From the IMG/VR virus record IMGVR_UViG_3300045988_082835: a stretch of 64,000 nucleotides of DNA; one strand, 5' to 3'. The position numbers and the translations under genes are program-made. Numbering within the stretch: the stretch's first letter is position 1; the number at the start of each line of letters is the position of its first letter. Below the pieces are notes generated by a model. It had not been told where the DNA came from, did no database searches, and saw only the letters and a program-made list of their open reading frames with translations. The stretch is from a virus. This document shows positions 3,589-42,326 of the stretch, piece after piece.

Positions 3589-4842
3589 TTAAATACTGCT
3601 CTTAGCAGTCTCACGAATTGCTTTTACCCAATCAGGAACATTATCTGTCTCTGGATGCTCCAAATTGAAAAGTCCTTTTGGGGTCTTATCATCCTCTTCA
3701 TGTTTATCCTCAAGGTTAAAGTTTACCTTATTTCTAACACAAAGAATAGATAACTTAGCTTCAATATCATCTAAAGAATAAGTGTCAATATGCTCCACGA
3801 CGTCTTTCTTATCATCATCGCTAAGCATATAGAAACTATCAATCATTTGTTGCTTATTTTGACGTTCAGCTTTGAGCTTAAACTCTTTCAATTCAGCAAC
3901 TTCGGTATCTAGAGTATTCTTCTCTTGCTCAAGAGCAGAATATTTACTCTCTAATTCATTAAATTTAGCAAGCAACTCTGTATATTCAGTTACATCTTCG
4001 AGATTATACTTGCCTTTCTTATCCTTATCCTCTTTTCCCTCTTTCTCAGGGGCAGGAGTTCCAGAAGAATTTTCTTTCTCCTTGTTTTTATCCTCTGGAT
4101 TAGGATTATTTTTCTCGAATTCGGTAAGTGCTTTATTCTCATTATCCATAGGTTCTTGAGAGCCTCCTTTATTAAAAGTTTCTTTTAATTGATCCATCAT
4201 AGAGTATACCATAGTTTTAAGTTTCTAAAACTCTTGATTACCCTCTAAAGAAAATTGAGAACTAAATTGAGCTCCCTCGAAACAAGGCTCAACATTTTCT
4301 CCGAGAACACATAATTTCTCAATCAATGCTTCATTGTAGATAAAGATTCTTTCATTTGTTTTTTCATCTTTTGTCCAAAATCCTGACTGATTTTTTTCAT
4401 TTAATTCCATAGAATGGTTGTTTCCATTTTCTAAAATTCTCTTAGATTCTGGATAAACACCAGTCCAAATATATACATCAGTAACTAGATATTCTCTTTC
4501 TACACCTTCATCATTGAACTTCTAAAACCATACATTAGCGTTATCTGGAACAAATCCATAAGGTCTTGTTACATCAACAATAGCAAACTTGCCGTCTTTA
4601 ATATCAATCGCTCTATTGTGACCTTCAAAATCCTTTGTCTCTTGATTAAAATAGCCAACAATAGGACTTCCCGGCAATTTACGCCCCATCTCTACAGCTA
4701 CTTCCTTAGTAATCACTGTATGATTGCGGTTTGGCTGTTGACCGACATAACAAACTTTACAAACGCCTTTGCTAACTAGAGGAGAAATCTAAGTGTTCTA
4801 AATATATTCCATTGTGTTTAAAATAGGAACACTAATATGCAA
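3589..4842 (-). CDS. scaffolding protein: N-terminal domain (possible prohead protease) fused in frame to a C-terminal acidic coiled-coil scaffold domain via sense TAG codons
   Basis: ORF-track pieces 4522..4716, 4225..4410 and 3589..4212 are one frame joined by TAG; TTG start after AAAGGAGGG; C-terminal 200 aa highly acidic with heptads. Confidence 0.55.
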
Positions 4843-4856
4843 GTTCAATCCCTCCT

Positions 4857-6485
4857 TTATGACGAACTTTCTTGATTAGCTATTGTCTTATCAGACTTTT
4901 CGCCATCTTCCTTCTTTGGCCTTCCGGCTCCATTATTGTTAGTTGAACTTGTCTATTTATTCTAAGAATTAGTATTAGATGACTAATTATTATTACCCAA
5001 ATCTTTTCCGCTTCTGGTATTAGAACTCATAGGAGGAATCATAATCTCCGCCAAGTTCAATACTTCATTCTCAAACGTTAATGTAGCTAAAATGCTTGAT
5101 TGAGAATGCCCTAAAGCGATTTGTGGCAACATCTTAGAATATCCTAACTGAGCGTGTTCTTTATACAACTTTGATAATTCTTTATAATTAAACTATGTTG
5201 TTTCTAACATCTCAGCTCTAAATTCATAATGATTCTTGCGATTGAATTTTTCTACCACTCTATTTAGTAATTCTGTAAACATGAGAGGTATATCTCTAAC
5301 GCTAGATTCATCAGTCAATATAGAATTTGTTACAGCAATATTTCCATCGGCATTAAACAAATTATGAGTTACACCTGAATTGTTGTAAACTGTACGTTCA
5401 ACCTTTTCCAAATCGTCGGTTGTTGTATTGGAGTTATTGTCTTTTGTATCAATTTTTTCAATATCCGCAAAAGTTGTCAATACATCTACTCCAATAGCTC
5501 TTTTAAGCATTGCAACTGCGTTATTATGAATATCTCTGGCTTCATCAACGTCAAAAATTAAATCACCATTCTTATCAAGAGGCAACTTCTAAATGATGAT
5601 TTTCAATAGTTGCTACATTGTTTTTTGACGATCCAATTCTTGCGCCTAATCCAAATCAATAATAGAAGGAATAACTCCCGCAAGAAAGGGAAATTCATTA
5701 TCGTTTAAGCTAAACTTAACTGAAACACTAGGATCTAGAGGATACCAAACAGTTGTACTCCCCGGGTAATCTCCCTTTAATTTCCCCTACTTATAAAGAA
5801 TATAAGCCTTCTATATATCTTGAGGAAAAATCTTTAATATCTGAACCTTATACTGTGGGTTTGGGAAATAAACATCAAAAAACTCAAGATTTAATTCAAC
5901 AATAGGATTAGGGCCTTGGAAATATCTATTGCGACAATATGAAGCAGGTAGCTTCTAAATGGCAAACCTATCTCCGAAGTCAACAATTATACCATAATAC
6001 GCCCCTTCTTTGATGATATCTAATGATATATTACCAAACATTCTCTTTATATTAGATTTATCAAGATAAAGCAATACTTTAGAAAAGTCTTTTAATAACT
6101 TCTCCTTATCTTTCTGCGCGCTTACGGTATATGGGGTTATATACCAATCAAATCTGTATAAGAAAGCTAGGTATTTACATAATCTGTAATATATACCGCT
6201 ACTTTCATAGAAATAATTAGAGATTTCTCTTAGAGTTCTATAATCATGCTTATAAATAGCATTTAATACGAACTTCTTATCTCCATAATTTCTATTTATT
6301 TTCTTATATGTACCTAGATTAATAAGCGCATCATCTACCGAGCGAAGCCCCACCCGCATCTTAGCATAATCAATGCTCTTATAATCTAAGTCATCTTCTT
6401 CCTCTTGCTGCTAATAGCGAGTAACGTCTTGATTTAATAAATCAAAACCTTTGGCTCTAATACTTTCTTGTCTACTCTTTAACAA
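4857..6485 (-). CDS. portal protein (about 543 aa), TAG-recoded (about 15 in-frame TAG)
   Basis: single continuous frame across ORF-track fragments 5955..6359, 5193..5585 and 4983..5168 when TAG=Gln; sits between terminase and scaffold; start after GGGAGGTG. Confidence 0.55.
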
Positions 6486-6503
6486 AATATCACCTCCCGG
6501 ATT

Positions 6504-6865
6504 CAGTATCCAGCCTTGCTCATTAAGTAATCATAAGAGATGATATTTTCCTCGGTATAGGGAACTTCTATAAGCGTAATTCCTTTTAAGGCACAAAATC
6601 TACGCTTTTGATTATCATTATATTTCTATTGATATAACCCTCTATTTCCACCAAATTTACTTACAGCCTAATAGTGCTATTTTCCTTGATATTCAATTAA
6701 AAAATCAAGATTTCCATCATCATCAAAAACAGCAAAATCAAAACGAAGTGGTCTACCGCTTGGCGCTTTTAACCCAGGAAATTCATACTCTTCTTTAAAG
6801 TTTATGCCATTTTGCTCTAGTATTTCATGAATTTTAATTTCTCCACGACTAGCTTTCATACTCAC
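6504..6865 (-). pseudogene. Vsr/DUF559-like PD-(D/E)XK homing-endonuclease gene, frameshifted into two pieces (6677..6865 and 6504..6665)
   Basis: motifs RFDFAVFDDDGNLDFLIEYQGKQ and RRFCALKGITLIEVPYTEENI match the C-terminus of the 35509..36456 ORF but lie in two frames; GTG start overlaps terminase stop (GTGA). Confidence 0.5.
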
Positions 6866-8607
6866 ACCTCGCTCATAAACATAAAGTCTGAAAATCTTCT
6901 ACTTTTACGCTTGCGTTTACTATCTTCTTCCTATTTAATATAATACAGCCCATATTCAAGCGCAGAGAATTTATCTTTAGGCACGGATTTATTTGCTTGT
7001 TTCAAAATAATATTCACGCCTTCATTTTCTTCTCGCAAATTCAGCATTTCTTCTCTTAATATAGAAGTTAAAGTGAACGGTTTTAAATATTCTGCCCGTT
7101 CTTCTGGTTTCATAGCCTAACCTTTTTTAGTACCAAGCAATTTATTTCTTGCAACTTTTTCATCAATCAAAAATCTAAGTTTTCCCGCTCTTAATTGTGT
7201 CTAAACATTACTATGCGCCTCGGTATTAATAGGAGCGTTAGCCTTAATTTCATAGATGGCATCATATTCTGTGTTTTCTGTCCTAAACCGCTTATACTCA
7301 CCATCTTCATCATTAGCTACACCAAAGTCAGGAAAAACTTCATTGGTATCAGGTACTATCTAAGGTTTAACCATATAATCCATCAATCCGGCGCCAAGGC
7401 CATTACCGTCGATTACAATAATCTTAGCCTTATAATTATAATATAATCTCTTTAACTTAATTGCCTAATCTTCAAAATGTTCATCGTCCATAGTATATAT
7501 ATTTACCAAAGACTTTATAGCAGGTCCTTGTGACTAAGGAGTTACCTTAAAGACACAAACAACAGATTGACATTTCTTTCTACCTACATCAACAGAAAGA
7601 ACATAATAAGCCTGTGCAGAAGATCTTCCAGACGATTCATATTCAGGCTAAAGGAGTTTTCTACTTCTATCAAAAGCATCTCCATTAAAGAAAGCATCTT
7701 CAACAGTTCCACTCCACTTAGATTCATACTCTCTATCGAATGAAGCTTCATTAAAAGTACCGTCCTATTTTAGTTCCTATACGAAATTGCGGGATTGCAA
7801 TCCTACTAACACAGGAATTCTCCATGTTCCGCCCATAACAATACTCTTTTCTGGTTCTAATATCATGCGCACAAGGAGAGTAATAAGTTTATTGTAGGGG
7901 AACGTATTCTTCCATCCCGCAGTAGTAACATAAATCTAGGATTTATTAAGTGTTTCTTCTTCATGAACAGAGCCATCTAAACATCTTCTATCAACGTTCA
8001 TCAAAGGAATTAAAACTTCGTTTAGAATATCTCCATCTACGCCGACACACTCCTCAATAAGTCCTCCATGTCTACGTTTACCACGAGAGGATTCTCTAGC
8101 TGCTACGTTATCAAAGTAGGAACCGTTTTTGAAGATATATTTACAATAATCTTTTCCTTCCTGCGTCTTGCCTCGTCTCCAATCAATTTCTCTTTGGAGT
8201 GCAGGGATTGCATTACATATTTCCTAGACTTTTTCTTTAGCAATTCCCGCAGCTTGTTCTTTTCCCCCAGAAGTAATGAATAACTTACATCCAGGATATA
8301 AAATACATCTACACATAAGCACCATTACAGAAAGAAATGATTTAGAATAAGCACGGGGGAATACCATGTATACATACTTATATCGCATGGCGGCCCGCAA
8401 GAAAACTCTCTAGTAAAAATAAAAGTTAATTTCTTTTTTCCTAGTTTCATCTCCACCAGTCTACAAGAAATCAATAAACATATCTGGATACTCTCTCCAA
8501 AATGCTACATACTATCTTGCAACTGGAATTATAGCTCGAACTCTTTCTTCTGAGAGTCCAATTTTTTTATTATTGTTCGAGAGGTTTAATAAATCTTTTA
8601 GCGCCAT
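6862..8607 (-). CDS. terL: terminase large subunit (about 581 aa), TAG-recoded (about 14 in-frame TAG)
   Basis: continuous 1746-nt frame with TAG=Gln; N-terminal ATPase region and C-terminal RNaseH-like nuclease region (IVIDGNGLGAGLMDYM); AGGAGG RBS before ATG 8607. Confidence 0.85.
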
Positions 8608-8609
8608 TA

Positions 8610-9782
8610 TTAAACCTCCTTTAGTATGCTATTTAACATTTCTTCATCTTTATCTCTTTCAGATTCTTTCATATCCTCATACTCTTGATAATCTTCTTCT
8701 GTCAGTTCTGGATGTTCATAATTAAATAAATCTTCATCCTCATCACTATCTTCAACATCAATATTGGCTTCGCGCTCTTTATCTTTCACGATTTCTCTCA
8801 AAGAAGCTTCAATCATATTACCAAGATTCATTTCTTCTGTAACTAGAGTATGCGTATATTGCTACAAATCCTAAAGAGTTCTATCTACTTTATCCTATGG
8901 CCCATCAGTATAATATCTAGGAATAAACCCTTCTTTCTCGCATAATGCTACTAACTCACCAATAGAATCAACAAATTCGCCGGATTCTCCTTTATTCTAG
9001 GCGGCAGTGAACTTTCCACTTTTCATTAAGCTATCATAGGCCTTCTACATTTTCTAAAAGCCATCAATATCTCCAGCATCAATTAACTAATTTGCTTTTA
9101 AACTAGTCTTGCATACCATAATAAGAGTATCTTTATGTCCAGCTCCCTAAATATCATATGAACTCATCATATCTTTATAGAGCTACTCCATTCTTACTCT
9201 TTCTTCCCAAGAATAGCCTCGACCCCATTTAAGACGAAGCATTAATTTATCTTCTTCTGTTAGCTAATCACTAAAGTCGTCTTCTTCCTCTTCTGGATCT
9301 TGATATTCTGGAGTTCCAACTGGAGCCTAAACATCTTCCAATTCTTTCGGTTTTGGTGGAGTTCTATCAATAGCTAATTGCTCTTGAATTTCATCCTCTG
9401 TAAATCCTTGAGCTTTCATATTAAGAACTTTTTTCTCGGTTGAATCCTTCTCTAGTGCCTCTGTATCTGCCCAAGTATACTTATTCCATTGTTTTAATTT
9501 CATTTTGGATAAATAGCGTCCAATAATGGTTAATCCAGTAACCTTCTTTGGATCTTTTCCATACCTCTCCAATAAGCCATTCCACTCTTCTTTGATATAT
9601 GGAACATCAATTTCCTATAAAATCCATTTATAAGTTTCTGGATCCCAATTATCTACGTGCATAGTAAGACACTTTTTACAAATATCCATCTTTCCATCTG
9701 GAGGATATTTTTCTATATTCTTTGATGTATAAAACTATGTATCATCCATAGTTTTACCACACTTTTTACAATAATGACTCAC
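8610..9782 (-). CDS. packaging-associated protein with N-terminal CxxC Zn-ribbon and acidic C-terminus (candidate small terminase), TAG-recoded
   Basis: frame joins ORF-track 9327..9572 and 8610..8831; directly upstream of terL; GTG start after AAGAGG. Confidence 0.4.
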
Positions 9783-9787
9783 TATAA

Positions 9788-10873
9788 TCAACCTCTTTTC
9801 TTGTTACGACACTTCTTACAAATACTATATAAATTATCTTTACTTGTCTTATTTTTTGAAAAGAATTGATTATGAGCTGGCTTTAATTGCCCACACTTAG
9901 AACATTTTTTCATTGGATAATTTCTGTTTTTATACTACCAATATAAAAAATCCTCTAGGGCGGCTTCGGCTATCAATTTAGGAATTTTATTTCTCCATAA
10001 ACTGGAGATATATTCCACGCTATATGTTTTTCCGAACTCTTCATTTAATATTTCCTATATCTCATTATTCTGCTTTTTATCAATCTTTAACTCAACAATT
10101 CGTAAATAGATTGGAAAATCCTCAAGAGCTTTATCGCATATCTCTTCAAACGCTTGAATTAGATACCACGTATCCCCATCGAACTAATCATAACTATCTT
10201 CTTTTAATTTTGAATAATTGCATAAAATAGCAGAAACTACATTTGGATCCATTAAGGAAATACCTTTAACGACTACTTCCTATCCATTAAGATAACTTTC
10301 ATCATCAAGAGGTATATGTGTTCTTGTATTTCTTGTTAGCTTACAAGGAACTATAGGCTTTTGATATGCCTATTTAATAATATACTAATCTTTTCGCATT
10401 TCTATCAATGCTTTTTTCATCATATAAGCTTGTTTCGTTCCCGCGGCGCGTTTCAAGGCACCTTCCCAAGCATTAATGGTTTCTCTCAACTATTTTAAAC
10501 ATGGTATAGAATCTAAATCTTTTTGTGTAATAGAAATCTTTGGCTAAAATATAACATTTTTATTGTCTGACATTAAACCATAAATGCCATCCTCGCCATT
10601 TTCCATCTATGAAGCGAGTCCCTCAAAAGAACATTCTCGTTTATTGACAGTGGCCATTCGGTTATCAGTCAATATGTTCTTCTCTTTCTTCTCTTGTTTC
10701 TCCATACATAGAACTAAATAATCTGCTAATACTTCTAAATAACCTGGAGTTAAATCAGGATTTTCTGCGATTATTTTTTCGACAAGCGCCTTGCGCTCTT
10801 CGGGAGATTCAATCGTATAGTCTAATTTTATCATATACTGGTTCATCTCCTTTTTATACTCATATAATAACAA
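9788..10873 (-). CDS. hypothetical late protein with C-terminal Zn-ribbon, TAG-recoded
   Basis: extends ORF-track 10607..10873 through several TAG to TGA at 9788. Confidence 0.4.
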
Positions 10874-10961
10874 AAAAAAACTAGATTGTCAAATCTTTAC
10901 TTGATTTAATATTTTTAAAATGCTATAATTTAAATATAATAAATAGGGAGGTTTTAATAAA

Positions 10962-11300
10962 ATGTTTTTCGATACGCTCTATTCTGAATTACCAAAACGA
11001 GCATAGTATTACTTTAACATTTTAATTATAAGCATAGCAGTATAGCCAGAAGTTCTAACAGACATACTTGGACATAAAAACACTGTTGACTTATGGGATG
11101 TTCAAAATATCAATAATGCAAGACCAACGGCTTTGCATATTTATGCTTCATATAATTTAGATAGAGATTCTGATTATGAAATATGTTGTATCCCACATTA
11201 GGTTTTAGAAATAACGCCTAATAACAAAATATCATTCTATGATATGATTGATTATGATACTGATGATCCATGGGGGCTAGAACCAGATGCAATAGATTAA
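10962..11300 (+). CDS. hypothetical protein, contains in-frame TAG
   Basis: AGGGAGG RBS then ATG 10962; stop TAA 11298. Confidence 0.4.
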
Positions 11301-11925
11301 CATAAAAGAATATTTTAAACAATAGAAAGATGAATTGCGGCAGTCCGATGTCAAGCCATCATTGACCATAATTGATGCAACTAACGGGGATGCCGGAAAT
11401 TAGATTTATATATAGAAAAAAGTAGACGACTTTGATGAATTAGGATGGCCAGTAAGCGTGATTAAAGTTCCAGAACACTGGACTCCCGCAGATTTAAATA
11501 ATTACATAAATAGTATAGATACTGATTGTATTATAGCACAAATGCCACTAAGAGATTCATTGAGTTCTTTTTCTATTGATGTAATTCCTACGATAAAAGA
11601 CTGCGACGGTTTAACTTCTTCTACTCTTGTTTTACCGGCAACGGTAAGAGGAATAGTAGACTATCTTGATGACTGTGGTTTTAAGTATGAAGGTAAAAGT
11701 GCTTTAATATTAGGTAGAAGTAATATAGTTGGTAAGCCAATGGCGAAAGAGTTGTTGGCGAGAAATATGACTGTATCTATCTGTCACAGTAAAACAAATG
11801 TAAATGCGAAGCTTTATTTAGCAAGAATAGCAGATTTAGTAGTATCCGCAGTTGGAGATTTTACTTTGACAAGAGAGGCTTGCCCTCACGCTATTGTTGT
11901 TGATGTTGGTATTCGTAGAAATTAG
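11287..11925 (+). CDS. folD: bifunctional 5,10-methylene-tetrahydrofolate dehydrogenase/cyclohydrolase FolD (5 in-frame TAG in N-terminal half)
   Basis: GRSNIVGKPMA...ICHSKT and PVPGGVG motifs; the FolD N-terminus is recovered only with TAG=Gln. Confidence 0.7.
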
Positions 11926-12077
11926 GCGAATTTTATTCAAGGCGATTTTGTTGAACTTGAAGATATTGCAAAGAGAAATGAAGTGTGGTCAACTCCTGTG
12001 CCCGGAGGGGTGGGATTATTGACTAGATTGGGGTTGATGAAAAATTGCTTATAGTTAGCGAAACAGGCGCGAAGATA

Positions 12078-12437
12078 ATGAAATTCTCAGAAGATTTTGA
12101 TAATTATGCTAGAGAGGTTCTTCATATTGAAAATCCTTTTCGAGAATTTTATCGTACACAGGATTCAACATTTAAGACTAATATTGATGGCAGCATAACA
12201 GTAGATATGGAGAAATCCAGAGAAATATACAGAGAAACAAAAATAAATAGAGAAGAATGGGTAAAGCTGAGGAATAGATATATCGCAGAAAGAATATTGC
12301 GAGAACTCGGGTATGAAGTCCTATTAGCTTCGTCTTATTTTGAGGATTACCCTGATGCAATTCCCTGTGATGGAGCTACAGGACAGTGTTTACTAGATTG
12401 TAGAATAAAGGGGTGTAAATATGAACCCATGCATTGA
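12078..12437 (+). CDS. hypothetical protein
   Basis: ORF track 12045..12437; likely ATG at 12078. Confidence 0.4.
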   Translation: MKFSEDFDNYAREVLHIENPFREFYRTQDSTFKTNIDGSITVDMEKSREIYRETKINREEWVKLRNRYIAERILRELGYEVLLASSYFEDYPDAIPCDGATGQCLLDCRIKGCKYEPMH

Positions 12438-12636
12438 TTATTGTTATCTTAGATTGCATCAATAGTATGATCCAATTAGATGCGATGATTCATGCGAATA
12501 TGCAAAAGTAATAAAAGAAAACAAAGAGTTAAAGTAGAAGATCGAGGAATTAAAAACTCAACACACTTTATTTGAAAAATAAAATAAGACAATTATTTAA
12601 TTTTGCCCAACGGCATTTTTATAAAAGGAGGCCGCG

Positions 12637-13401
12637 ATGACAAAACAAGAGCGCGCAATCAAGGCACGAGCGCATTATGAAGATATTAAAACTAGACTTG
12701 CCGCAAACACTAAATTATCTATCGAGCGCACATATGTATATAGTCCAGATTCTTTTACACAGCATGAATCCGGCAATCAGAAACCAGCTTTTACTCTAAC
12801 AGATATGGATAGTGTATCTTGCCTATTCAATTTATCTAACAATGGTAGAACAGCAATTCTTAACTACGCCAGTTATAAAAACCCGGGTGGATTTTTTCTA
12901 GGAGGTAGTCCCGCGCAGGAAGAGGCTCTTTGTCATGAATCCAATCTTTACCCTATCCTTCTTGCTTTTGATGAAACGTATTACGCATGGAATCGACAGA
13001 GATTAAATAAGGCTTTATATTTAAATAGAGCGCTGTATTCTCCTAGCGTAGTATTCGAGCGCAATGACAAACAAAAGGAAGCAGATATTATAACTTGTGC
13101 GGCCCCGAATTTCCGAACGGCGCATAGATACCAGAGTGTGAGTAAGAGCGAGAATGATAGAGTTCTTGAAGATCGAATTCACTTTATGTATCAGATTGCT
13201 GAGGAAAACGGTGTGGAAAATCTAATCGCGGGAGCCTGGGGTTGTGGAGTTTTTATGCAAGATCCGTATACGGTCGCAACCTTGCTCATAGGCGCAGCCC
13301 GCAATTATAATATTCCAAATATTTATTTTGCAATTCCTGACCGCAACTCCCAGAATTTTAGGGCATTTTTGAAAGCAGGTAAAGAATGTATAAACAGTTA
13401 A
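12637..13401 (+). CDS. PARG-like macrodomain protein (DUF2263/TIGR02452-type)
   Basis: signature NPGGFFLGGSPAQEEAL (GGG-x-QEE) and AGAWGCGVF; RBS AAAGGAGG. Confidence 0.65.
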   Translation: MTKQERAIKARAHYEDIKTRLAANTKLSIERTYVYSPDSFTQHESGNQKPAFTLTDMDSVSCLFNLSNNGRTAILNYASYKNPGGFFLGGSPAQEEALCHESNLYPILLAFDETYYAWNRQRLNKALYLNRALYSPSVVFERNDKQKEADIITCAAPNFRTAHRYQSVSKSENDRVLEDRIHFMYQIAEENGVENLIAGAWGCGVFMQDPYTVATLLIGAARNYNIPNIYFAIPDRNSQNFRAFLKAGKECINS

Positions 13402-13823
13402 TTATAGCTAGAAAAGATTTAAATATGTCTCCAGGTAAGCTGGCCGCACAAGTTTCCCATGCTTCTATTGCTTTTCTTTTAGAGAAAATACTTTGGGGAA
13501 GCAAAGAAGTAGTTAGGGAAAGAGATGGTATTATGTATCATGTGAATGTAAGTCTCGATACAGATTTATACCATAATTGGATAATAGAAGCAGAAACTAA
13601 AGTTGTTTGTCGAGCGAAAAATAAGAATGATTTATTGCGGGCGGTCGAAGCAGCTAAAGAGCTCGGTATGGAGGAGTATAAAGATTACTTTTTGATTTAC
13701 GATGCTTGCAGGACAGAGCTGGAAAAAGAGAGTCCTGAAGGGACTCTCACTTGTATTGGATTTAGGCCAATGGAAGCTGAGGAGATTGATAAGATTGGCA
13801 GAAAATATCAATTATACCATTAA
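13386..13823 (+). CDS. pth2: peptidyl-tRNA hydrolase, PTH2 family
   Basis: LIIARKDLNMSPGKLAAQVSHASIAF and C-terminal TLTCIGF...IDKIG motifs typical of PTH2. Confidence 0.65.
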   Translation: MYKQLIIARKDLNMSPGKLAAQVSHASIAFLLEKILWGSKEVVRERDGIMYHVNVSLDTDLYHNWIIEAETKVVCRAKNKNDLLRAVEAAKELGMEEYKDYFLIYDACRTELEKESPEGTLTCIGFRPMEAEEIDKIGRKYQLYH

Positions 13824-14393
13824 GGGATAGAATGGAAAATGGCTTATTATAAAATTTAAGGGGAATGGAGCCTTATATTCTTTGTGTTTAAATTGCGGAT
13901 TCACTCATTCGTGTTATAAGGAAGATGGCGATTTATTAGTTACCTATGATGAAGCAGGAGAATATAATTTTTGCCCTAGTTGTGGAGAAAAGATGAAAGG
14001 TTAAAAGTTTAGCCTTTCATCTTTTTTTCGTTATTGAGATTGAAAGTACGATTTAGATTTTGAAATGGCGTGGCAGAACAAATTTGCGAAAAAATTTCCA
14101 GTTTTTCCCAAAATACACCCTCCCCTTTCACATGGTAAAGTGCTGAAGTGTAGTCAGCCTCTTTCACTCATTAAAGTATGAAAGTAAAAAGCCACGCCCT
14201 AAAGGAATACGCGCGCGTAAAGGATTTATGCAAATTGCACAGTTGAACAATGTTTATTTTGTGCAAAAGAGAGAGAAAGAAATTTCAAAAAACTATTGAC
14301 AAACAGGGCAAACGGGTGTAAACTGGACTTGTCCAGTAGAGGACAGGGCAAAACTCAATGTACCTTGAAAATTAAAAATTTTCAAAAAAAGTA

Positions 14394-37580: not shown

Positions 37581-37675
37581 CCCGCGGTAGCTCAACGGTA
37601 GAGCAGCCGGCTTATACCCGGTATTAGCGCCAGATTAGCGTGAGGTTTGGGGTTCGAATCCCTGGCGCGGGACCA
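37581..37675 (+). tRNA. atypical 95-nt tRNA: standard acceptor, D- and T-arms, anticodon loop CTTATAC (UAU), 25-nt unpaired extra region
   Basis: cccgcgg..ccgcggg acceptor, gctc/gagc D-stem, ttcgaat T-loop, ACCA 3' end. Confidence 0.4.
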
Positions 37676-37737
37676 TAGGCGTAACGCTGCACGCCCTCGA
37701 AAGAGGTATCACAGAAGGCACATACAGCAAAGTTATT

Positions 37738-37811
37738 TTCCGAATAGTCTAATGGTTGGACATTTTAATTGAAATAAAAAGTTATGGGTTCGAATCCCAT
37801 TTTGGAAGCCA
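37738..37811 (+). tRNA. class-I (short variable loop) tRNA with anticodon UGA (Ser UCA family); U1:A72, G73, G10
   Basis: clean cloverleaf; anticodon stem ttttа/taaaa, loop ATTGAAA. Confidence 0.55.
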
Positions 37812-37889
37812 TCTAGTGCCTTGAAATTATTTGAAAAACTTTTATAAATATGATATAATATTTATAGAAAGTGAGAGAGGAAGTTGTTT

Positions 37890-38099
37890 ATGGATAAGAA
37901 ATTATACCTCGCGCAACTTGCCGCTAAGGCCATGTCCTGTTACAGCGATGAAGATGTAGTTTGTGATAGCCTTTGGCTTATGAATGGCGGCATTGGTGGG
38001 CCAGAGGAACAGTGGGAAAACTTTCTCAAGGTTTTTAAGGATACCTTTGGTATTTCCTATGATGAAGCTAAACAACTGAATCTTTTTGAAAAACAATAA
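37890..38099 (+). CDS. hypothetical small protein
   Basis: ORF track 37884..38099; ends ..EKQ* inside the next promoter. Confidence 0.45.
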   Translation: MDKKLYLAQLAAKAMSCYSDEDVVCDSLWLMNGGIGGPEEQWENFLKVFKDTFGISYDEAKQLNLFEKQ

Positions 38100-38289
38100 A
38101 AAATATGTTATAATATTTATATAAGGCAGATACAGCAAATTATTTACAAATAAAACGCTTATTTTGGTTTAAGAAAGTTTATTTATTCTGCCTTGAGCTT
38201 GGGTCGGTAGCTCAGAAAAATTTTTGGGTAAAGTGAGCTAAAGATAATTCACTAATTCTTATATATTATATAAAGGAGAGTGAATTGTT

Positions 38290-38811
38290 ATGCCGACAGC
38301 GTTGGATTTAACTGGACAAAAATTTGGAGCATTAACAGCAGTTTCAAAAGCTCCAAGTAGAAGTGGTAAAACATATTGGCTATGTAGATGTGAATGTGGG
38401 AACGAGAAAGAAGTTTAGACAGGTCATTTAACTTCTGGAGCTATTTAGAGCTGCGGATGTAAGTAGCATTTAAAGAAAAATAGTGGAAAAAATGTAGTTA
38501 ATTTTAGAAAACGAATTAAGCTAGCATTGGTGGAAGGTTTTTCTCATAAATGCTCTTACTGCGGATTGCGGGATGCACCTCAGTTATACGACTTTCATCA
38601 CGTTGACCCATCTACAAAAAGTTTTGGTATCGCAAATTCTTCTACTACAAGAAGTAAATAGGCTTATGCAGATGAAGCAAAAAAGTGTATAATGCTATGT
38701 GCTAATTGTCACAGAAGAATTGAAAATGGTCTAATTTCTTTAGATGATTTTACGCCAATCTTATTTGATGAAGAGAAGTATTTCAAAACTCTTGAGGATT
38801 TGATTTCATAA
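38290..38811 (+). CDS. HNH homing endonuclease with N-terminal LTGQKFG Zn-finger module, TAG-recoded
   Basis: FHHVDP...CANCHRRIE HNH motif; several in-frame TAG. Confidence 0.6.
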
Positions 38812-38821
38812 TCCTCAATAT

Positions 38822-38895
38822 GGATCGCTAGTTCATCGGTAGAACGCAAGGCTGTTAACCTTGATAGCATGGTTCAACTCCATGGCGATCCGCCA
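38822..38895 (+). tRNA. tRNA-Asn(GUU)
   Basis: loop CTGTTAA; acceptor ggatcgc/gcgatcc; CCA encoded. Confidence 0.85.
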
Positions 38896-39021
38896 GAGTC
38901 AAGTTTGTGAGTAGCGTCGTGACTTTAACCCTAAACTCTCAATTCGTCCACTGCGAAGGAAAATAAAAGGCTGGCCCAATAGAGCGACGGGTGGTTCTGA
39001 AACAAATAGTTGCTCTTTTAT

Positions 39022-39098
39022 GTTCTCGTGGCGCAATAGGCAGACGCGCGTGGCTTAGAACCACGATGTTGCGAGTTCGACTCTCGCCGAGAACACCA
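39022..39098 (+). tRNA. class-I tRNA with anticodon UAG (Leu CUA family) and A73
   Basis: anticodon stem cgtgg/ccacg, loop CTTAGAA, 5-nt variable ATGTT, T-arm gcgag-ttcgact-ctcgc. Confidence 0.55.
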
Positions 39099-39196
39099 AA
39101 GAAGAGTCGCGAAAGGATCTGTCCAGAAAAAATTTGTATCACAAGAACTTCCGGTGTAGCTCAGTTTAACCGTCTGGCCGGCTCTTCTATTTATAT

Positions 39197-39283
39197 GCAC
39201 CTGTGGTGGAATTGGCAGACACGACAGCTTGAGGGGCTGTTATTCGAAAGAGTGTGCAGGTTCGAGTCCTGTCAGGTGCACCA
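39197..39283 (+). tRNA. tRNA-Leu(GAG), class II
   Basis: loop TTGAGGG; 15-nt variable arm; A73. Confidence 0.85.
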
Positions 39284-39423
39284 TGGTTTCTACTGATTTT
39301 CCATGACCAATAAGTCAGAAGTGTGATATATGCGAACGACGAGGCGCAAAGCACACGGGGTGCGTACGACCCTTCCTCGCCTTATTTGGTGGCGTAGTTC
39401 AGTAGGCTAGAACGTCGGCCTGT

Positions 39424-39891
39424 CTTGGAGATTAATAGAGAATATCTTTAGAGGGAGGATTGATAGCATTGGAGAAATTAAATCCATCCCAGATTGGAGA
39501 TATTACAGAGCTTAAATGTTAGGCGTATTTAATTGAGAATGGTTGGAATGTTCTTATTCCGATTGGAAATCATCAAAAGTATGATTTAGTGATAGAGAAG
39601 AACGGCAAATTCTATAAAATTCAAGTAAAACACGCTATGCCGGTAGAGGAAACTGGATTTCTTGTTCGTACTAAATATGAAGTGCGAGAAAATGGAAAAG
39701 TTAAAAAAATGACTTATTCTGCTAAAGATGTAGACTATTTTATGACAGAGTTTAATGGAAGGTTTTATATGTTCCCTGTTTTTGGAACAGTAGAGACTAA
39801 GTTTTGGACTGTTGCCACAAGATTATCTACTCAAAAGCAGGCTAAAGATTTTAAAGCTGAAGATATTCTATCCACACTATAATCACTAAGG
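39424..39891 (+). mobile_element. intron-like insertion in tRNA-Asp anticodon loop (possible group I intron)
   Basis: 5' exon ends in U, insert ends ..CTAAGG; carries a homing-endonuclease ORF. Confidence 0.5.
39469..39882 (+). CDS. PD-(D/E)XK homing endonuclease, I-Ssp6803I-like, one in-frame TAG
   Basis: ITELKCQAYLIENGWNVLIPIGNHQKYDLVIEKNGKFYKIQVKHA; TTG start after GAGGGAGG. Confidence 0.55.
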
Positions 39892-40146
39892 CACGCCGAA
39901 GGTCACGGGTTCAAACCCCGTCGTCATCGCCAATTTGAAAAACAATAAAAAATATTGTATAATGTTTATACAAGGTTGAGAAAGAACAAAGTATCGCAAG
40001 TCGTATATAGGCAGCGATAGCGCGCAAGTGAATCAGCAATGCGGTGTCCCCTTTGGGTTGATGCCTGGCACATTGGACTGTAGTAGCCGATAAATTAGAG
40101 CGTAGTTCTCCTTGATTGACACGACCAATCATCTTAACCATAGTAT

Positions 40147-40222
40147 GGGGCATTAGCTCAGTTGGGAGAGCGCCTGCCTTGCAAGCAGGAGGTCACGAGT
40201 TCGACCCTCGTATGTTCCACCA
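40147..40222 (+). tRNA. tRNA-Ala(UGC)
   Basis: G3:U70; loop CTTGCAA. Confidence 0.9.
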
Positions 40223-40432
40223 TAGGTATCTACTAACAATTATACATATGATACCATCTAATGATTACAGGTTTTTATTGATTTCATTGCCATAAAACAA
40301 TAGGGCATTATCTATTTCCGCCCTCAATAGAAATAGGTGGTTTTCAGTGACGCCGCTGTTCACCAACTGGAAGAAAAGTTAGTATCTTAATAAAGTAGAT
40401 GATAGAAGTAAGATACTAAAAGTGCGTAATAT

Positions 40433-40507
40433 GCTCGGTTAGTCAAGCGGTAAAGACGCTGGCCTTTCACGCCAGAAGCACGGGTTCGACTCCCGTACCG
40501 AGTACCA
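40433..40507 (+). tRNA. tRNA-Glu(UUC)
   Basis: loop CTTTCAC; 4-nt variable. Confidence 0.85.
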
Positions 40508-40539
40508 TAAATCAATAGGAAAAGGAGATAAATCTTATT

Positions 40540-40779
40540 ATGAAGAATGTTCACGGGAAGTTCAATTCTTTTGTCGCGCTCGGTCAGGCCTTTGGTATTA
40601 AGTGTGCGGTTGAAGCTGAGAAGGTACATAAGTGCCCTAATTGCGGGAATGAGCTTCGCAAGGTTGGTAACACAAATGTTTATGTTTGTGATTACGGAAC
40701 TCTTGAGGATACAGATTTGAAGGGAACTCCCGTGCAGGTGCTCACAAAGTGTGGCACTATTGAGATTGACAATACTTAA
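40540..40779 (+). CDS. small Zn-ribbon protein
   Basis: ORF track; CPNCGN..VCDYG; RBS AAAGGAG. Confidence 0.45.
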   Translation: MKNVHGKFNSFVALGQAFGIKCAVEAEKVHKCPNCGNELRKVGNTNVYVCDYGTLEDTDLKGTPVQVLTKCGTIEIDNT

Positions 40780-40821
40780 ATAAGTGGAGACCTAAGCAAG
40801 TCGATAAACTGCTTGTTATAT

Positions 40822-40898
40822 GGCGCCTTCCTCTAAATGGCATAGGAAGCCGGAACCTCACTCCGGCAATATGAGTTCGAATCTCATAGGCGTCACCA
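40822..40898 (+). tRNA. tRNA-like gene with poor D-stem and C33 anticodon loop ACCTCAC (CUC?); possible pseudogene
   Basis: good acceptor and T-arm with CCA; D-stem ctct/agga mostly unpaired. Confidence 0.3.
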
Positions 40899-41185
40899 GA
40901 CGTATGGACTCCACGGCTCAACGGAGAAAACGGGTCTTTCTTGTGCGTAGAGTATGGTACGGCAAGAATATAATTATTAATTGGCACGTCCTTGCTTTAT
41001 AAAGTGAAACGGTTCCGGCTGATACATCCAGCGGAGGGGCGCAAGAGTACCGTGACTATTAGAGTTATTTCAAAATGTGAAGTATGTGAGGCGTGGGCCA
41101 GGAGTGGCAATGCAGACCAACTTAGAAGCGTCTAGGCATTGAGTAACAGAAATATATTTTGATTATAGCTCTAATAGTTGTATAT

Positions 41186-41260
41186 CGCAGAGAGGGTGTT
41201 GGTTCCCTGTCGAGTCTCATAAACTCGATTACGTGAGTTCGATTCTCACCTCTGCACCCA
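41186..41260 (+). tRNA. tRNA with CAU anticodon and C1-A72 mismatch (initiator-like or Ile2/Met)
   Basis: loop CTCATAA; lacks the GGG/CCC initiator stem. Confidence 0.65.
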
Positions 41261-41375
41261 TAAAAGACTGACACATTGGGAACCTATTTCTGAGACGCTT
41301 ACGAGCCTCTCAAGTGCGATAATAGGCTGTCAGAAGGGCACTACCATTTTAAATATTCGACAAGGAGGTAATAAA

Positions 41376-41435
41376 ATGATGGATATTGATGATTTCATTT
41401 TCGCAGAAACAGAAGTTATCCCAAGCAATAGGTAA
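41376..41435 (+). CDS. 19-codon ORF (MMDIDDFIFAETEVIPSNR) behind a perfect AAGGAGGT SD
   Basis: SD spacing 7 nt; TAA stop. Confidence 0.25.
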   Translation: MMDIDDFIFAETEVIPSNR

Positions 41436-41509
41436 GATAACTTATATGTTCAATGCGGCCACCGAGAGGTGTTGGTTCCAAGCCCATGAAACGCAGAGGA
41501 AACATATTT

Positions 41510-41601
41510 GGAGGGGTGGCAGAGTGGTTGAATGCAAGGGATTGCTAATCCCTCGGCCATAGAAATGTGACCCGGAGGTTCGAATCCTCTCCCCTTCGCC
41601 A
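41510..41601 (+). tRNA. tRNA-Ser(GCU), class II
   Basis: loop TTGCTAA; long variable arm; G73. Confidence 0.85.
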
Positions 41602-41632
41602 ATCGCCAATCGGGACAGACACTGTTGTATAT

Positions 41633-41830
41633 GCCGGCCGCATATAAACGAGGCGATTTGTGTTAATAGCGAAAACCGACTAAGCTATTCCGTTCGCTTG
41701 CGGCGATAATACAAGCAACTTAATAAGTCCGACAAGTTTGGTGGTACTGCTGCGGACGCCAAGAGGGACAGGGGGCCAAAACCACAAGACAGAGGAATGG
41801 GTTCGATTCCCATGCGGCCGGCGATTAGGC
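41633..41830 (+). ncRNA. tRNA-like structured element: canonical T-arm (atggg-ttcgatt-cccat) next to a 13-bp long-range stem (atgccggccgcat/atgcggccggcat) enclosing about 170 nt; no CCA
   Basis: inverted repeat 41633..41645 with 41815..41827. Confidence 0.25.
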
Positions 41831-41911
41831 TGGCGGTTGGTGTATAGTGTGGAAACGAGCATACTGTCAATCTTCTTTAACCTGGGCCGAGGTTTATATC
41901 GGCTATTATAT

Positions 41912-41987
41912 GCTGGATTAGCTCAATAGGTAGAGCAATCGCCTTGTAAGCGATAGGTTAAGAGTTCGAGTCTCTTATCCAGCTCCA
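41912..41987 (+). tRNA. tRNA-Thr(UGU)
   Basis: loop CTTGTAA. Confidence 0.9.
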
Positions 41988-42180
41988 GCCTCGGCAGAGG
42001 CGTTTAAACGCGGCAATGGAGTGATTCCTCCTACCTGTAAGATATTGTGGCCGCTTTATCAAGCAGTCCGTATGGTAAACCGAGTCGGATAGGGTTGGAT
42101 AGGGCGCAGAGAATTGTACCGCTAATTCCGAGTGCAAAGGCAGGACGCCGATACCTGATATTAAAATCTATTGCCAATAT

Positions 42181-42257
42181 GTTGTGAGTAGCTTAACTGG
42201 TAGAGTCCCTCGTTGTGGCCGAGGTTAGTGCGAGTTCGAATCTCGTCTTACAACCCA
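42181..42257 (+). tRNA. tRNA-His(GUG) with encoded G-1 pairing C73
   Basis: loop TTGTGGC; extra 5' G. Confidence 0.9.
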
Positions 42258-42326
42258 TAGACCTATTCAGCAAATTTTCAATCATATGTTTTTGGGTACA
42301 TAAGAAGATGAAAAGGGGTCTAGTAT

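Follow-up and report, generated by a model that had tools for sequence, protein, structure and literature searches.

What might a phage gain from encoding a macrodomain hydrolase of the PARG type and a peptidyl-tRNA hydrolase in two overlapping genes? The question is raised by a 64,000-nucleotide (nt) stretch of the IMG/VR virus record IMGVR_UViG_3300045988_082835 (hereinafter the window, i.e., the whole stretch of DNA that was analyzed), in which an earlier note made from the sequence alone (hereinafter the original prediction) had recognized these two genes and suggested that they act as early anti-defense factors. We found that both proteins belong to the families named and that the linkage of the two families in phages looks like more than chance, though it is not obligatory. 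We tentatively favor the interpretation that the pair could constitute a co-expressed accessory module that either maintains RNA or tRNA or counters host defenses.

Overlapping genes for a PARG-type macrodomain and a PTH2

Both open reading frames (ORFs) lie on the plus strand and the second starts inside the first, as had been proposed; they and their flanking signals are as follows:

12637..13401, + strand: PARG gene, coding for a bacterial-type (DUF2263/TIGR02452) macrodomain hydrolase of 254 amino acids (aa); ATG start, TAA stop
13386..13823, + strand: gene for a PTH2-type peptidyl-tRNA hydrolase of 145 aa; ATG start, TAA stop
13386..13401, + strand: overlap of the PARG and PTH2 genes, 16 nt as read from the sequence, with possible translational coupling
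12625..12631, + strand: Shine-Dalgarno sequence AAGGAGG, read from the sequence 5 nt 5' of the PARG ATG
13985..14028, + strand: hairpin with a U-run, recovered by folding, a likely intrinsic terminator about 160 nt 3' of the PTH2 gene

The first gene codes for a bacterial-type PARG macrodomain with its catalytic Gln-Glu-Glu and its diphosphate loop intact. Profile searches with the protein recovered TIGR02452, the model by which the original prediction had asked to be judged, over residues 10-244 (E=1.4e-53, 182 bits against a cutoff of 50), as well as PF10021 (PARG_cat_microb; E=8.3e-27, 94.8 bits, cutoff 23.5), and a PDB search returned the PARGs of D. radiodurans (8e-24) and T. curvata (4e-21) as the closest solved structures by sequence, the former (DRB0099) being the closest of all. 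Structure searches concur: an AlphaFold2 (AF2) model of high confidence (predicted local distance difference test, pLDDT, 93.4) gave a Foldseek E-value of 2e-18 and template-modeling (TM) scores of 0.84/0.78 to 3sih (T. curvata PARG) and of 0.79-0.81 to the 5zd* entries of D. radiodurans PARG, while eukaryotic PARGs and plain macrodomains fit the model far worse (other macrodomains: TM <=0.55). The top matches by both sequence and fold were all PARGs rather than members of the DarG/TARG1 clade. The catalytic loop reads N-P83-G84-G85-F86...Q94-E95-E96, in which Q94-E95-E96 aligns with the QEE of D. radiodurans PARG (DrPARG) and is invariant among 24 diverse homologs. The diphosphate loop, G199-A-W-G202-C-G204-V-F206, aligns with the GAWGCGVF of DrPARG, and G199, G202, G204, V205, and F206 are invariant in the same set. 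Of the GGG..QEE signature on which the original prediction leaned, the QEE is thus present, but the third Gly is Phe (F86; PGGF...QEE), the first two being invariant. Accordingly, the protein resembles the bacterial PARGs (T. curvata 3SIG; D. radiodurans DRB0099, 5ZDA-5ZDG) in its fold (TM 0.79-0.84), at about 27-30% sequence identity, and in possessing the catalytic Q-E-E and the G-x-G-x-G-V-F diphosphate loop; it differs from them in the Phe that takes the place of the third Gly in GGG-X6-8-QEE, in being encoded by a phage, and in the overlap of its gene with one for a PTH2. The position aligned with the 'ribose cap' residue, which bears on exo- versus endo-glycohydrolase activity (position 242), varies across the family. 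No PHROGs family matched the PARG-like protein, and PADLOC returned no match to the PARG, the PTH2, or three neighboring proteins. Some PARG-like homologs are fused to a YAcAr/SLOG domain (PF10686; P0079, P0082, P0088, P0104).

The second gene codes for a PTH2 peptidyl-tRNA hydrolase in which the Lys and Asp motif residues are intact. Here too the family call was upheld by its profile, with residues 2-144 matching positions 1-115 of the 115 in PF01981 (E=1.9e-23, 83.3 bits, cutoff 23); further matches were to phrog_1866 (4.8e-21) and, in the PDB, to Ta0108 (2.6e-13). The AF2 model (pLDDT 93.9) superimposes on archaeal Pth2 and human Bit1 (1rlk, 3erj, 1xty, and 1q7s) with TMt values of 0.83-0.86. 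The protein displays the motifs G17-K18 and D106-A-C-R-T110; K18, D106, and T110 align with archaeal Pth2 and are invariant in 42 members of the subfamily, with Cys108 standing for the motif Gly. We take the Lys of the GK motif and the Asp of D-x-G-x-T to be active-site residues, the roles reported for K18 and D86 from mutagenesis of the S. solfataricus enzyme. Thus, the window PTH2 is like its archaeal and eukaryotic counterparts (1XTY from S. solfataricus, 3ERJ, i.e., AF2095 from A. fulgidus, and human Bit1, 1Q7S) in its full-length profile match, its fold, its N-terminal RxDLxMxxGK...H motif, and its C-terminal D-x-x-x-T motif, and unlike them in a lineage-specific, variable insert of about 22 aa (residues 33-55), modeled as a β-hairpin, an additional 4-aa insert, and the Cys in the D-A-G motif. 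It represents a divergent subfamily with inserts.

The string at 13386, ATGTATAAAC, holds the PTH2 start codon inside the last PARG codons; counted from this start to the last nt of the PARG stop codon, the overlap spans the 16 nt from 13386 to 13401. Overlap or abutment (with 1-nt spacing) of the two genes is kept in the relatives L001-L007, L018, and L020, and the overlap that the original prediction had taken to suggest co-expression is real. The PARG gene is preceded by a strong Shine-Dalgarno sequence, and the PTH2 gene has only a weak AGG(T) ahead of its start; a strong site on the first gene and a weak one on the second is the usual picture with coupled translation. This same-strand overlap of start and stop, seen in the relatives as well, is what is expected of a coupled operon, and the pair is accordingly a putative case of translational coupling. 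RNA folding gave no significant structure at the PARG-PTH2 junction. Downstream, the hairpin at 13985-14028 has a minimum free energy of -23 kcal/mol (z = -8.1; 0 of 200 shuffled sequences fold as well), its region is conserved in the relative L001, and it probably closes the transcription unit. A scan for sigma-70 promoters around the pair yielded weak matches (23 versus 14.7 +/- 3.9 expected from shuffles); as these are not clearly above the shuffled background, we claim no promoter. The G+C content of the PARG gene (40.3%) stands apart from the 34.7-36.5% of the FolD-like gene, a 119-aa ORF, and the PTH2 gene, and its Gln codons run 7:3 for CAG:CAA, as against the preference for CAA (116:35) in the recoded genes described below; these biases may reflect a foreign origin or a different expression.

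Linkage and neighborhoods of the two families in phages

Neither gene is new to phages; each adds a member to an established family, and the presence of PTH2 and Macro domains in jumbo phages has already been reviewed (PMC7824862). Like the jumbo-phage PTH2s of that survey, the window PTH2 is found in a large, tRNA-rich phage. The original prediction had called both genes rare in phages. This holds for INPHARED, where the PARG-like gene occurs in 19 of 50,697 records (Lak megaphages, Bacillus phage G, and unannotated metagenomic phage records, the last with two matches, including one 642-kb record) and PTH2 in 24 (XacN1, phiCD211-like and Enterococcus phages, and others). Among large metagenomic phages the genes are not rare, as pattern scans of IMG/VR recovered at least 236 PARG-like and at least 156 PTH2-like stretches, the majority of them on contigs 90-275 kb long. 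The phage-type PTH2 is moreover common in genomes of Clostridia, including complete Faecalibacterium chromosomes.

Clustering of the phage PARG genes at 85% identity produced 22 non-redundant lineages, in 7 of which a PTH2 gene lies within 3.5 kb of the PARG gene, in one or the other order; these proximity counts are uncorrected for shared ancestry and are set against no whole-genome background. In the family to which the window belongs, PARG is 5' of PTH2 throughout and the genes overlap or abut. The order is reversed in L025 and L084, where a 78-aa gene intervenes between PTH2 and PARG; in L062 PTH2 follows 0.7 kb downstream of PARG, and in L024 3.4 kb separate the two. Identity between the PARGs of linked lineages goes down to about 30%. 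Three further contigs from metagenome-assembled genomes (MAGs) have PARG and PTH2 within 2 kb of each other, and the largest phage cluster (~150 kb) has both genes 8-13 kb apart. Seen from the side of PTH2, PARG is found within 10 kb in 4 of 12 phage lineages. Linkage of the two genes thus looks like more than chance, though it is not obligatory. Full-text literature searches returned nothing combining 'PARG', 'peptidyl-tRNA hydrolase', and 'phage', and nothing on ADP-ribose glycohydrolases together with phage genomes and tRNA; hence, the conserved PARG-PTH2 pairing seems to be undescribed so far.

In 7 lineages, one of which (L062) also has a PTH2, genes for an RNA ligase, PNK/HD, RlaP, Thg1, or a CCA-adding enzyme/HD are situated no more than 10 kb from the PARG gene. 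In L096 (2096-5263), PARG is directly followed by an RNA ligase and PNK/HD, the same three-gene set as in the DRB0098-0100 operon of D. radiodurans (PMC11833690). RNA-repair genes likewise neighbor PTH2 in 4 of 12 lineages. Pooled over all loci, the matches made the largest PTH2 cluster look rich in such genes, yet just 19 of its 48 loci have one. In phiCD211, 1.1 kb separate PTH2 from RtcB, and in Astolliot a tRNA adenosine deaminase is encoded nearby. Other ADP-ribose hydrolases also recur beside it: in Xanthomonas phage XacN1 (L266), genes for a YbiA-like (NADAR) protein and a NUDIX hydrolase are within 4 kb of PTH2, and in Faecalibacterium, genes for MacroD-like and ARH proteins are 1-3.7 kb away, as on the F. 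prausnitzii UT1 chromosome (L133 7998-11829), where the MacroD-like and ARH (DraG-like) genes lie 1.4-2.5 kb downstream of PTH2. Among bacteria, this MacroD/ARH-PTH2 link is confined to Faecalibacterium and was therefore counted as one lineage.

A close relative has lost both genes. In L008 (IMGVR_UViG_3300045988_075249, 5950-6800), the flanks are 97-100% identical to the window, yet the PARG has residues 95-161 deleted, with the catalytic Glu pair gone and the remnant fused to the first PTH2 residues, and the remainder of PTH2 is fragmented, amounting to a natural double knock-out. Truncated alleles of both PARG and PTH2 are frequent in metagenomes and in the protein database. This pattern of loss and truncation fits a conditionally useful counter-defense gene, but also simple accessory cargo.

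Stop-codon recoding and the timing of expression

The phage reads TAG as sense. Among the 29 tRNA genes of the window, one with a CTA anticodon (a TAG suppressor) is located inside the array at 54919-54993, and long-ORF coverage rises from 0.58 to 0.83 once TAG is read as sense, which restores terminase-, portal-, and FolD-like genes with 4-15 in-frame TAGs each. The stretches that bear on this are 3589-12078 and 37581-55885, with minus-strand structural and packaging genes, likewise with 4-15 in-frame TAGs each, occupying 3589-10888. TAG makes up about 48% of the presumptive Gln codons in the recoded genes, as against none of the 13 Gln codons of the pair, and the Poisson probability of its absence from the pair's 399 codons is ~8e-5; the pair is TAG-free also in recoded relatives with only 52-66% PARG identity. 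Many other genes of the window are TAG-free as well, including those of the island at 56-64 kb. Having no TAG, both genes would be translatable with or without an active suppressor tRNA, and this is compatible with early expression, of which it is no proof.

Two of the co-directional genes 5' of the pair, which follow the order FolD, 119-aa ORF, Cys-rich ORF, PARG, and PTH2, bear on this timing:

11281..12078, + strand: FolD-like gene with 7 in-frame TAGs (Pfam THF_DHG_CYH_C, 1.5e-35, on the TAG-to-Gln translation)
12421..12582, + strand: small Cys-rich ORF of 53 codons with two in-frame TAGs, read from its translation and from a homologous ORF in the relative L002

The FolD-like gene is syntenic with the pair throughout the phage family, and the Cys-rich ORF is conserved in relatives, with one TAG at the same codon position in L002. 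Because of the latter ORF, the true gap 5' of PARG measures 54 nt (12583-12636). We had considered 12438-12636 as a 200-nt intergenic region with a promoter of its own; alignment with relatives ruled this out, as the region is mostly the TAG-containing ORF, which in turn weakens the idea of a separate early operon. As for the claim that the pair is expressed early, the absence of TAG from both genes speaks for it only indirectly, and they start 54 nt 3' of co-directional genes that contain TAG; with the genes directly upstream recoded, early timing is not established. On the other side of the pair, between PTH2 and the terminator, a 40-aa CxxC...CxxC zinc-ribbon ORF (13882-14004) was rejected as a part of the module, since L001, a relative of 97% identity, lacks most of it; a conserved gene at this place is improbable. 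In relatives, genes for YpsA (SLOG) and DUF488 proteins are situated 1-2 kb 3' of the pair (L018 7492-7986, L020 6715-7206); none of either kind was found among the window ORFs scanned.

The window stems from an uncultivated gut phage. Its closest relatives are IMG/VR contigs of 96-164 kb from one human-associated dataset, the nearest being a 163.6-kb contig; also close are contigs of ~148 kb that share bins with MAGs of Oscillospiraceae and Eubacterium. The probable host belongs to the Clostridia. In its recoding and tRNA richness, the phage resembles the published phAss-1 group of TAG-recoded, tRNA-rich gut phages, for which infection of Clostridia is predicted (PMC10607447).

Candidate roles of the pair and its RNA-repair context

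The biochemistry of the bacterial PARGs offers a framework in which both enzymes might be placed. No hydrolases other than these enzymes, DRB0099 among them, are known to reverse RhsP2-type ADP-ribosylation of the 2'-OH of RNA, the precedent for hydrolysis of the ribose-ribose linkage coming from SCO0909 and DRB0099 only; they also clear ADP-ribose from the 5'-phosphate ends of RNA and DNA and shield cells from the toxin (PMC11833690). There are ADP-ribosyltransferase (ART) toxins whose targets include tRNA, also in its charged form (PMC13617354), and the anti-phage system CmdTAC ADP-ribosylates mRNA. For its part, Pth detoxifies the N-acetyl-aminoacyl-tRNA produced by TacT-type toxins (PMC9241777), and PTH2 has been assigned to RNA repair and ribosome rescue in jumbo phages (PMC7824862). 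Since the bacterial PARGs are the sole known hydrolases for 2'-O-ADP-ribosylated RNA, we lean, with some reserve, toward an accessory module whose two members are made together and serve to maintain RNA and tRNA or to counter host defense. The PARG would remove ADP-ribose from the ribose 2'-OH or the terminal phosphates of RNA, or from poly(ADP-ribose), and the PTH2 would hydrolyze the ester bond of peptidyl-tRNA or N-acyl-aminoacyl-tRNA, substrates that accumulate upon ribosome stalling or when a toxin blocks charged tRNA; together, they would make tRNAs available again to the infecting phage. The Macro-type hydrolases and PTH2 of phage RNA-repair and NAD/ADP-ribose counter-systems have similarly been proposed to restore RNA and translation after attack by the host (Iyer et al. 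2021, PMC7824862), and in other phages homologs of PARG or PTH2 stand beside repair genes, including RtcB; unlike in those systems, the window pair is stand-alone and overlapping, with no ligase, kinase, or nucleotidyltransferase within 5 kb.

A more specific version, which we regard as unlikely albeit worth stating, holds that the two enzymes work as a dedicated two-step module for tRNA 'de-blocking', by which the phage undoes the ADP-ribosylation of RNA or charged tRNA by toxins of the host: the PARG would strip the ADP-ribose, and the PTH2 would clear the stalled peptidyl-tRNA or the blocked aminoacyl-tRNA; more generally, PTH2 would be a recurrent partner of ADP-ribose hydrolases (gut-phage PARG, XacN1 NADAR, and Faecalibacterium MacroD and ARH). 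If true, no earlier case of a phage countering RNA ADP-ribosylation would exist; this modification of RNA and tRNA has only recently been recognized as a bacterial weapon and an anti-phage mechanism (RhsP2, CmdT, TreThr). The question whether phages repair ADP-ribosylated RNA becomes testable with the pair, as it consists of two small soluble proteins for which toxins and assays are known, and the pair offers a functional lead for the many uncharacterized TIGR02452 proteins and for PTH2 in those bacteria and phages to which the host's Pth1 is already available. If the genes are merely neighbors, what is left is the routine annotation of two auxiliary genes.

That they are just neighbors is a possibility of some substance, if on balance a doubtful one: the two would be unrelated accessory genes brought together by co-inheritance or by accumulation in a variable region, sharing no pathway, with PTH2 serving general ribosome rescue and tRNA recycling, and PARG acting on protein- or poly-ADP-ribose or regulating the phage's own ADP-ribosylation. 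A number of observations tell against a joint module, and those on linkage also suit this account. None of the 50,697 INPHARED records has PARG and PTH2 together; 15 of the 22 PARG lineages lack a PTH2 within 3.5 kb, as do 69 of 80 redundant PARG loci within 10 kb, and PTH2 is without a nearby PARG at 75 of 80 bacterial loci and in 8 of 12 phage lineages, the uncorrected nature of such counts being a further point on this side. The tight pairs come mostly from a single syntenic family sharing terminase-YonG_N-FolD flanks, so that several of the linked lineages are not independent events, and 8-13 kb separate the two genes in the largest phage cluster. The pair is dispensable, given that the near-identical phage L008 does without both genes. 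In the window, no RNA-repair gene (ligase, RlaP, PNK, or phosphatase) is present within 5 kb of the pair, and the RlaP/MVP-like island, with RlaP and two Metallophos proteins at 61.5-63.9 kb, is about 43 kb away. At the protein level, Phe takes the position of the third Gly in the PARG loop, which varies between G, F, Y, M, L, and Q over the phage-rich subfamily (24 homologs), and the PTH2 falls below the NCBIfam equivalog cut-offs (PRK04322, 83.6 bits against 126; TIGR00283, 68.7 against 82). Against mere adjacency, the linkage survives both a reversal of gene order and divergence of the PARGs to ~30% identity, the two genes decayed jointly in L008, and PTH2 recurs near three other superfamilies of ADP-ribose hydrolases.

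Three further accounts remain. The original prediction had named DarT-like toxins as an example of what the macrodomain might oppose, so that the two genes would be an early anti-defense pair whose PARG-like member reverses DarT-like ADP-ribosylation of DNA. Phages are reported to carry orphan antitoxin-like ADP-ribose hydrolases against DarTG (PMC11825919, PMC13309987), and the window protein is, like the DarG-type orphan antitoxin macrodomains (anti-DarTG), a phage-borne ADP-ribose hydrolase possibly aimed at host ADP-ribosyltransferases; the TAG-free state of the pair would also suit such a role. However, it belongs to a different macrodomain clade (PARG, not TARG1/DarG) with a different known substrate chemistry, and it has no PADLOC match. 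DarT marks, i.e., ADP-ribose on DNA bases, are known to be reversed by DarG/TARG1-type macrodomains or NADARs, whereas PARG-type enzymes have been shown to act on 2'-OH- and phosphate-linked ADP-ribose (PMC11833690). This known substrate specificity is why we reject the DarT example, and with the genes directly upstream recoded the account as a whole appears very improbable. No more credible is the idea that the PARG-like enzyme destroys glycocyclic ADP-ribose (gcADPR) immune signals, the 1''-2' and 1''-3' products of Thoeris TIR proteins, with the PTH2 being incidental. On chemical grounds it has some appeal, as the ribose(1'')-O-ribose(2') bond cut by PARG is of the same type as the one by which gcADPR is closed; for the Macro and NADAR domains found in jumbo phages, a role in degrading signals derived from ADP-ribose has been put forward (PMC7824862), and the PARG-SLOG (YAcAr) fusions and the YpsA/SLOG gene downstream of the pair in relatives would be in line with it. 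It leaves the PTH2 linkage and the RNA-repair neighborhoods unexplained, and the literature searches turned up no PARG or macrodomain with activity on gcADPR. Lastly, the pair might serve the phage's own stop-codon recoding, with PTH2 recycling the peptidyl-tRNA of ribosomes stalling at TAG or running through it during the transition to suppression, and PARG tuning the ADP-ribosylation of translation factors. The recoding of the phage and its relatives and the TAG-free pair would accord with this, but PTH2 is also found in the standard-code phages XacN1, phiCD211, and EF1 (the last reported not to be recoded), L024 and L147 hold both genes without a recoding signal, and no phage ART was identified; we give this proposal little credence.

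Beyond the pair, the window has an RNA-repair-like island of its own (55994-63929), directly after the tRNA array, with the following genes:

56015-57538: DUF2828/DUF7788 protein (phrog_850, 'RNA-binding protein')
57919-60342: 807-aa protein with the shoulder and repeat domains of the Major Vault Protein (MVP)
61482-62279: RlaP nucleotidyltransferase
62276-63145 and 63396-63929: two calcineurin-like phosphoesterases (Metallophos)

A vault-protein homolog is unusual in a phage. The tRNA array itself has a gene for an AAA/nSTAND3-like ATPase (49777-50898) embedded in it.

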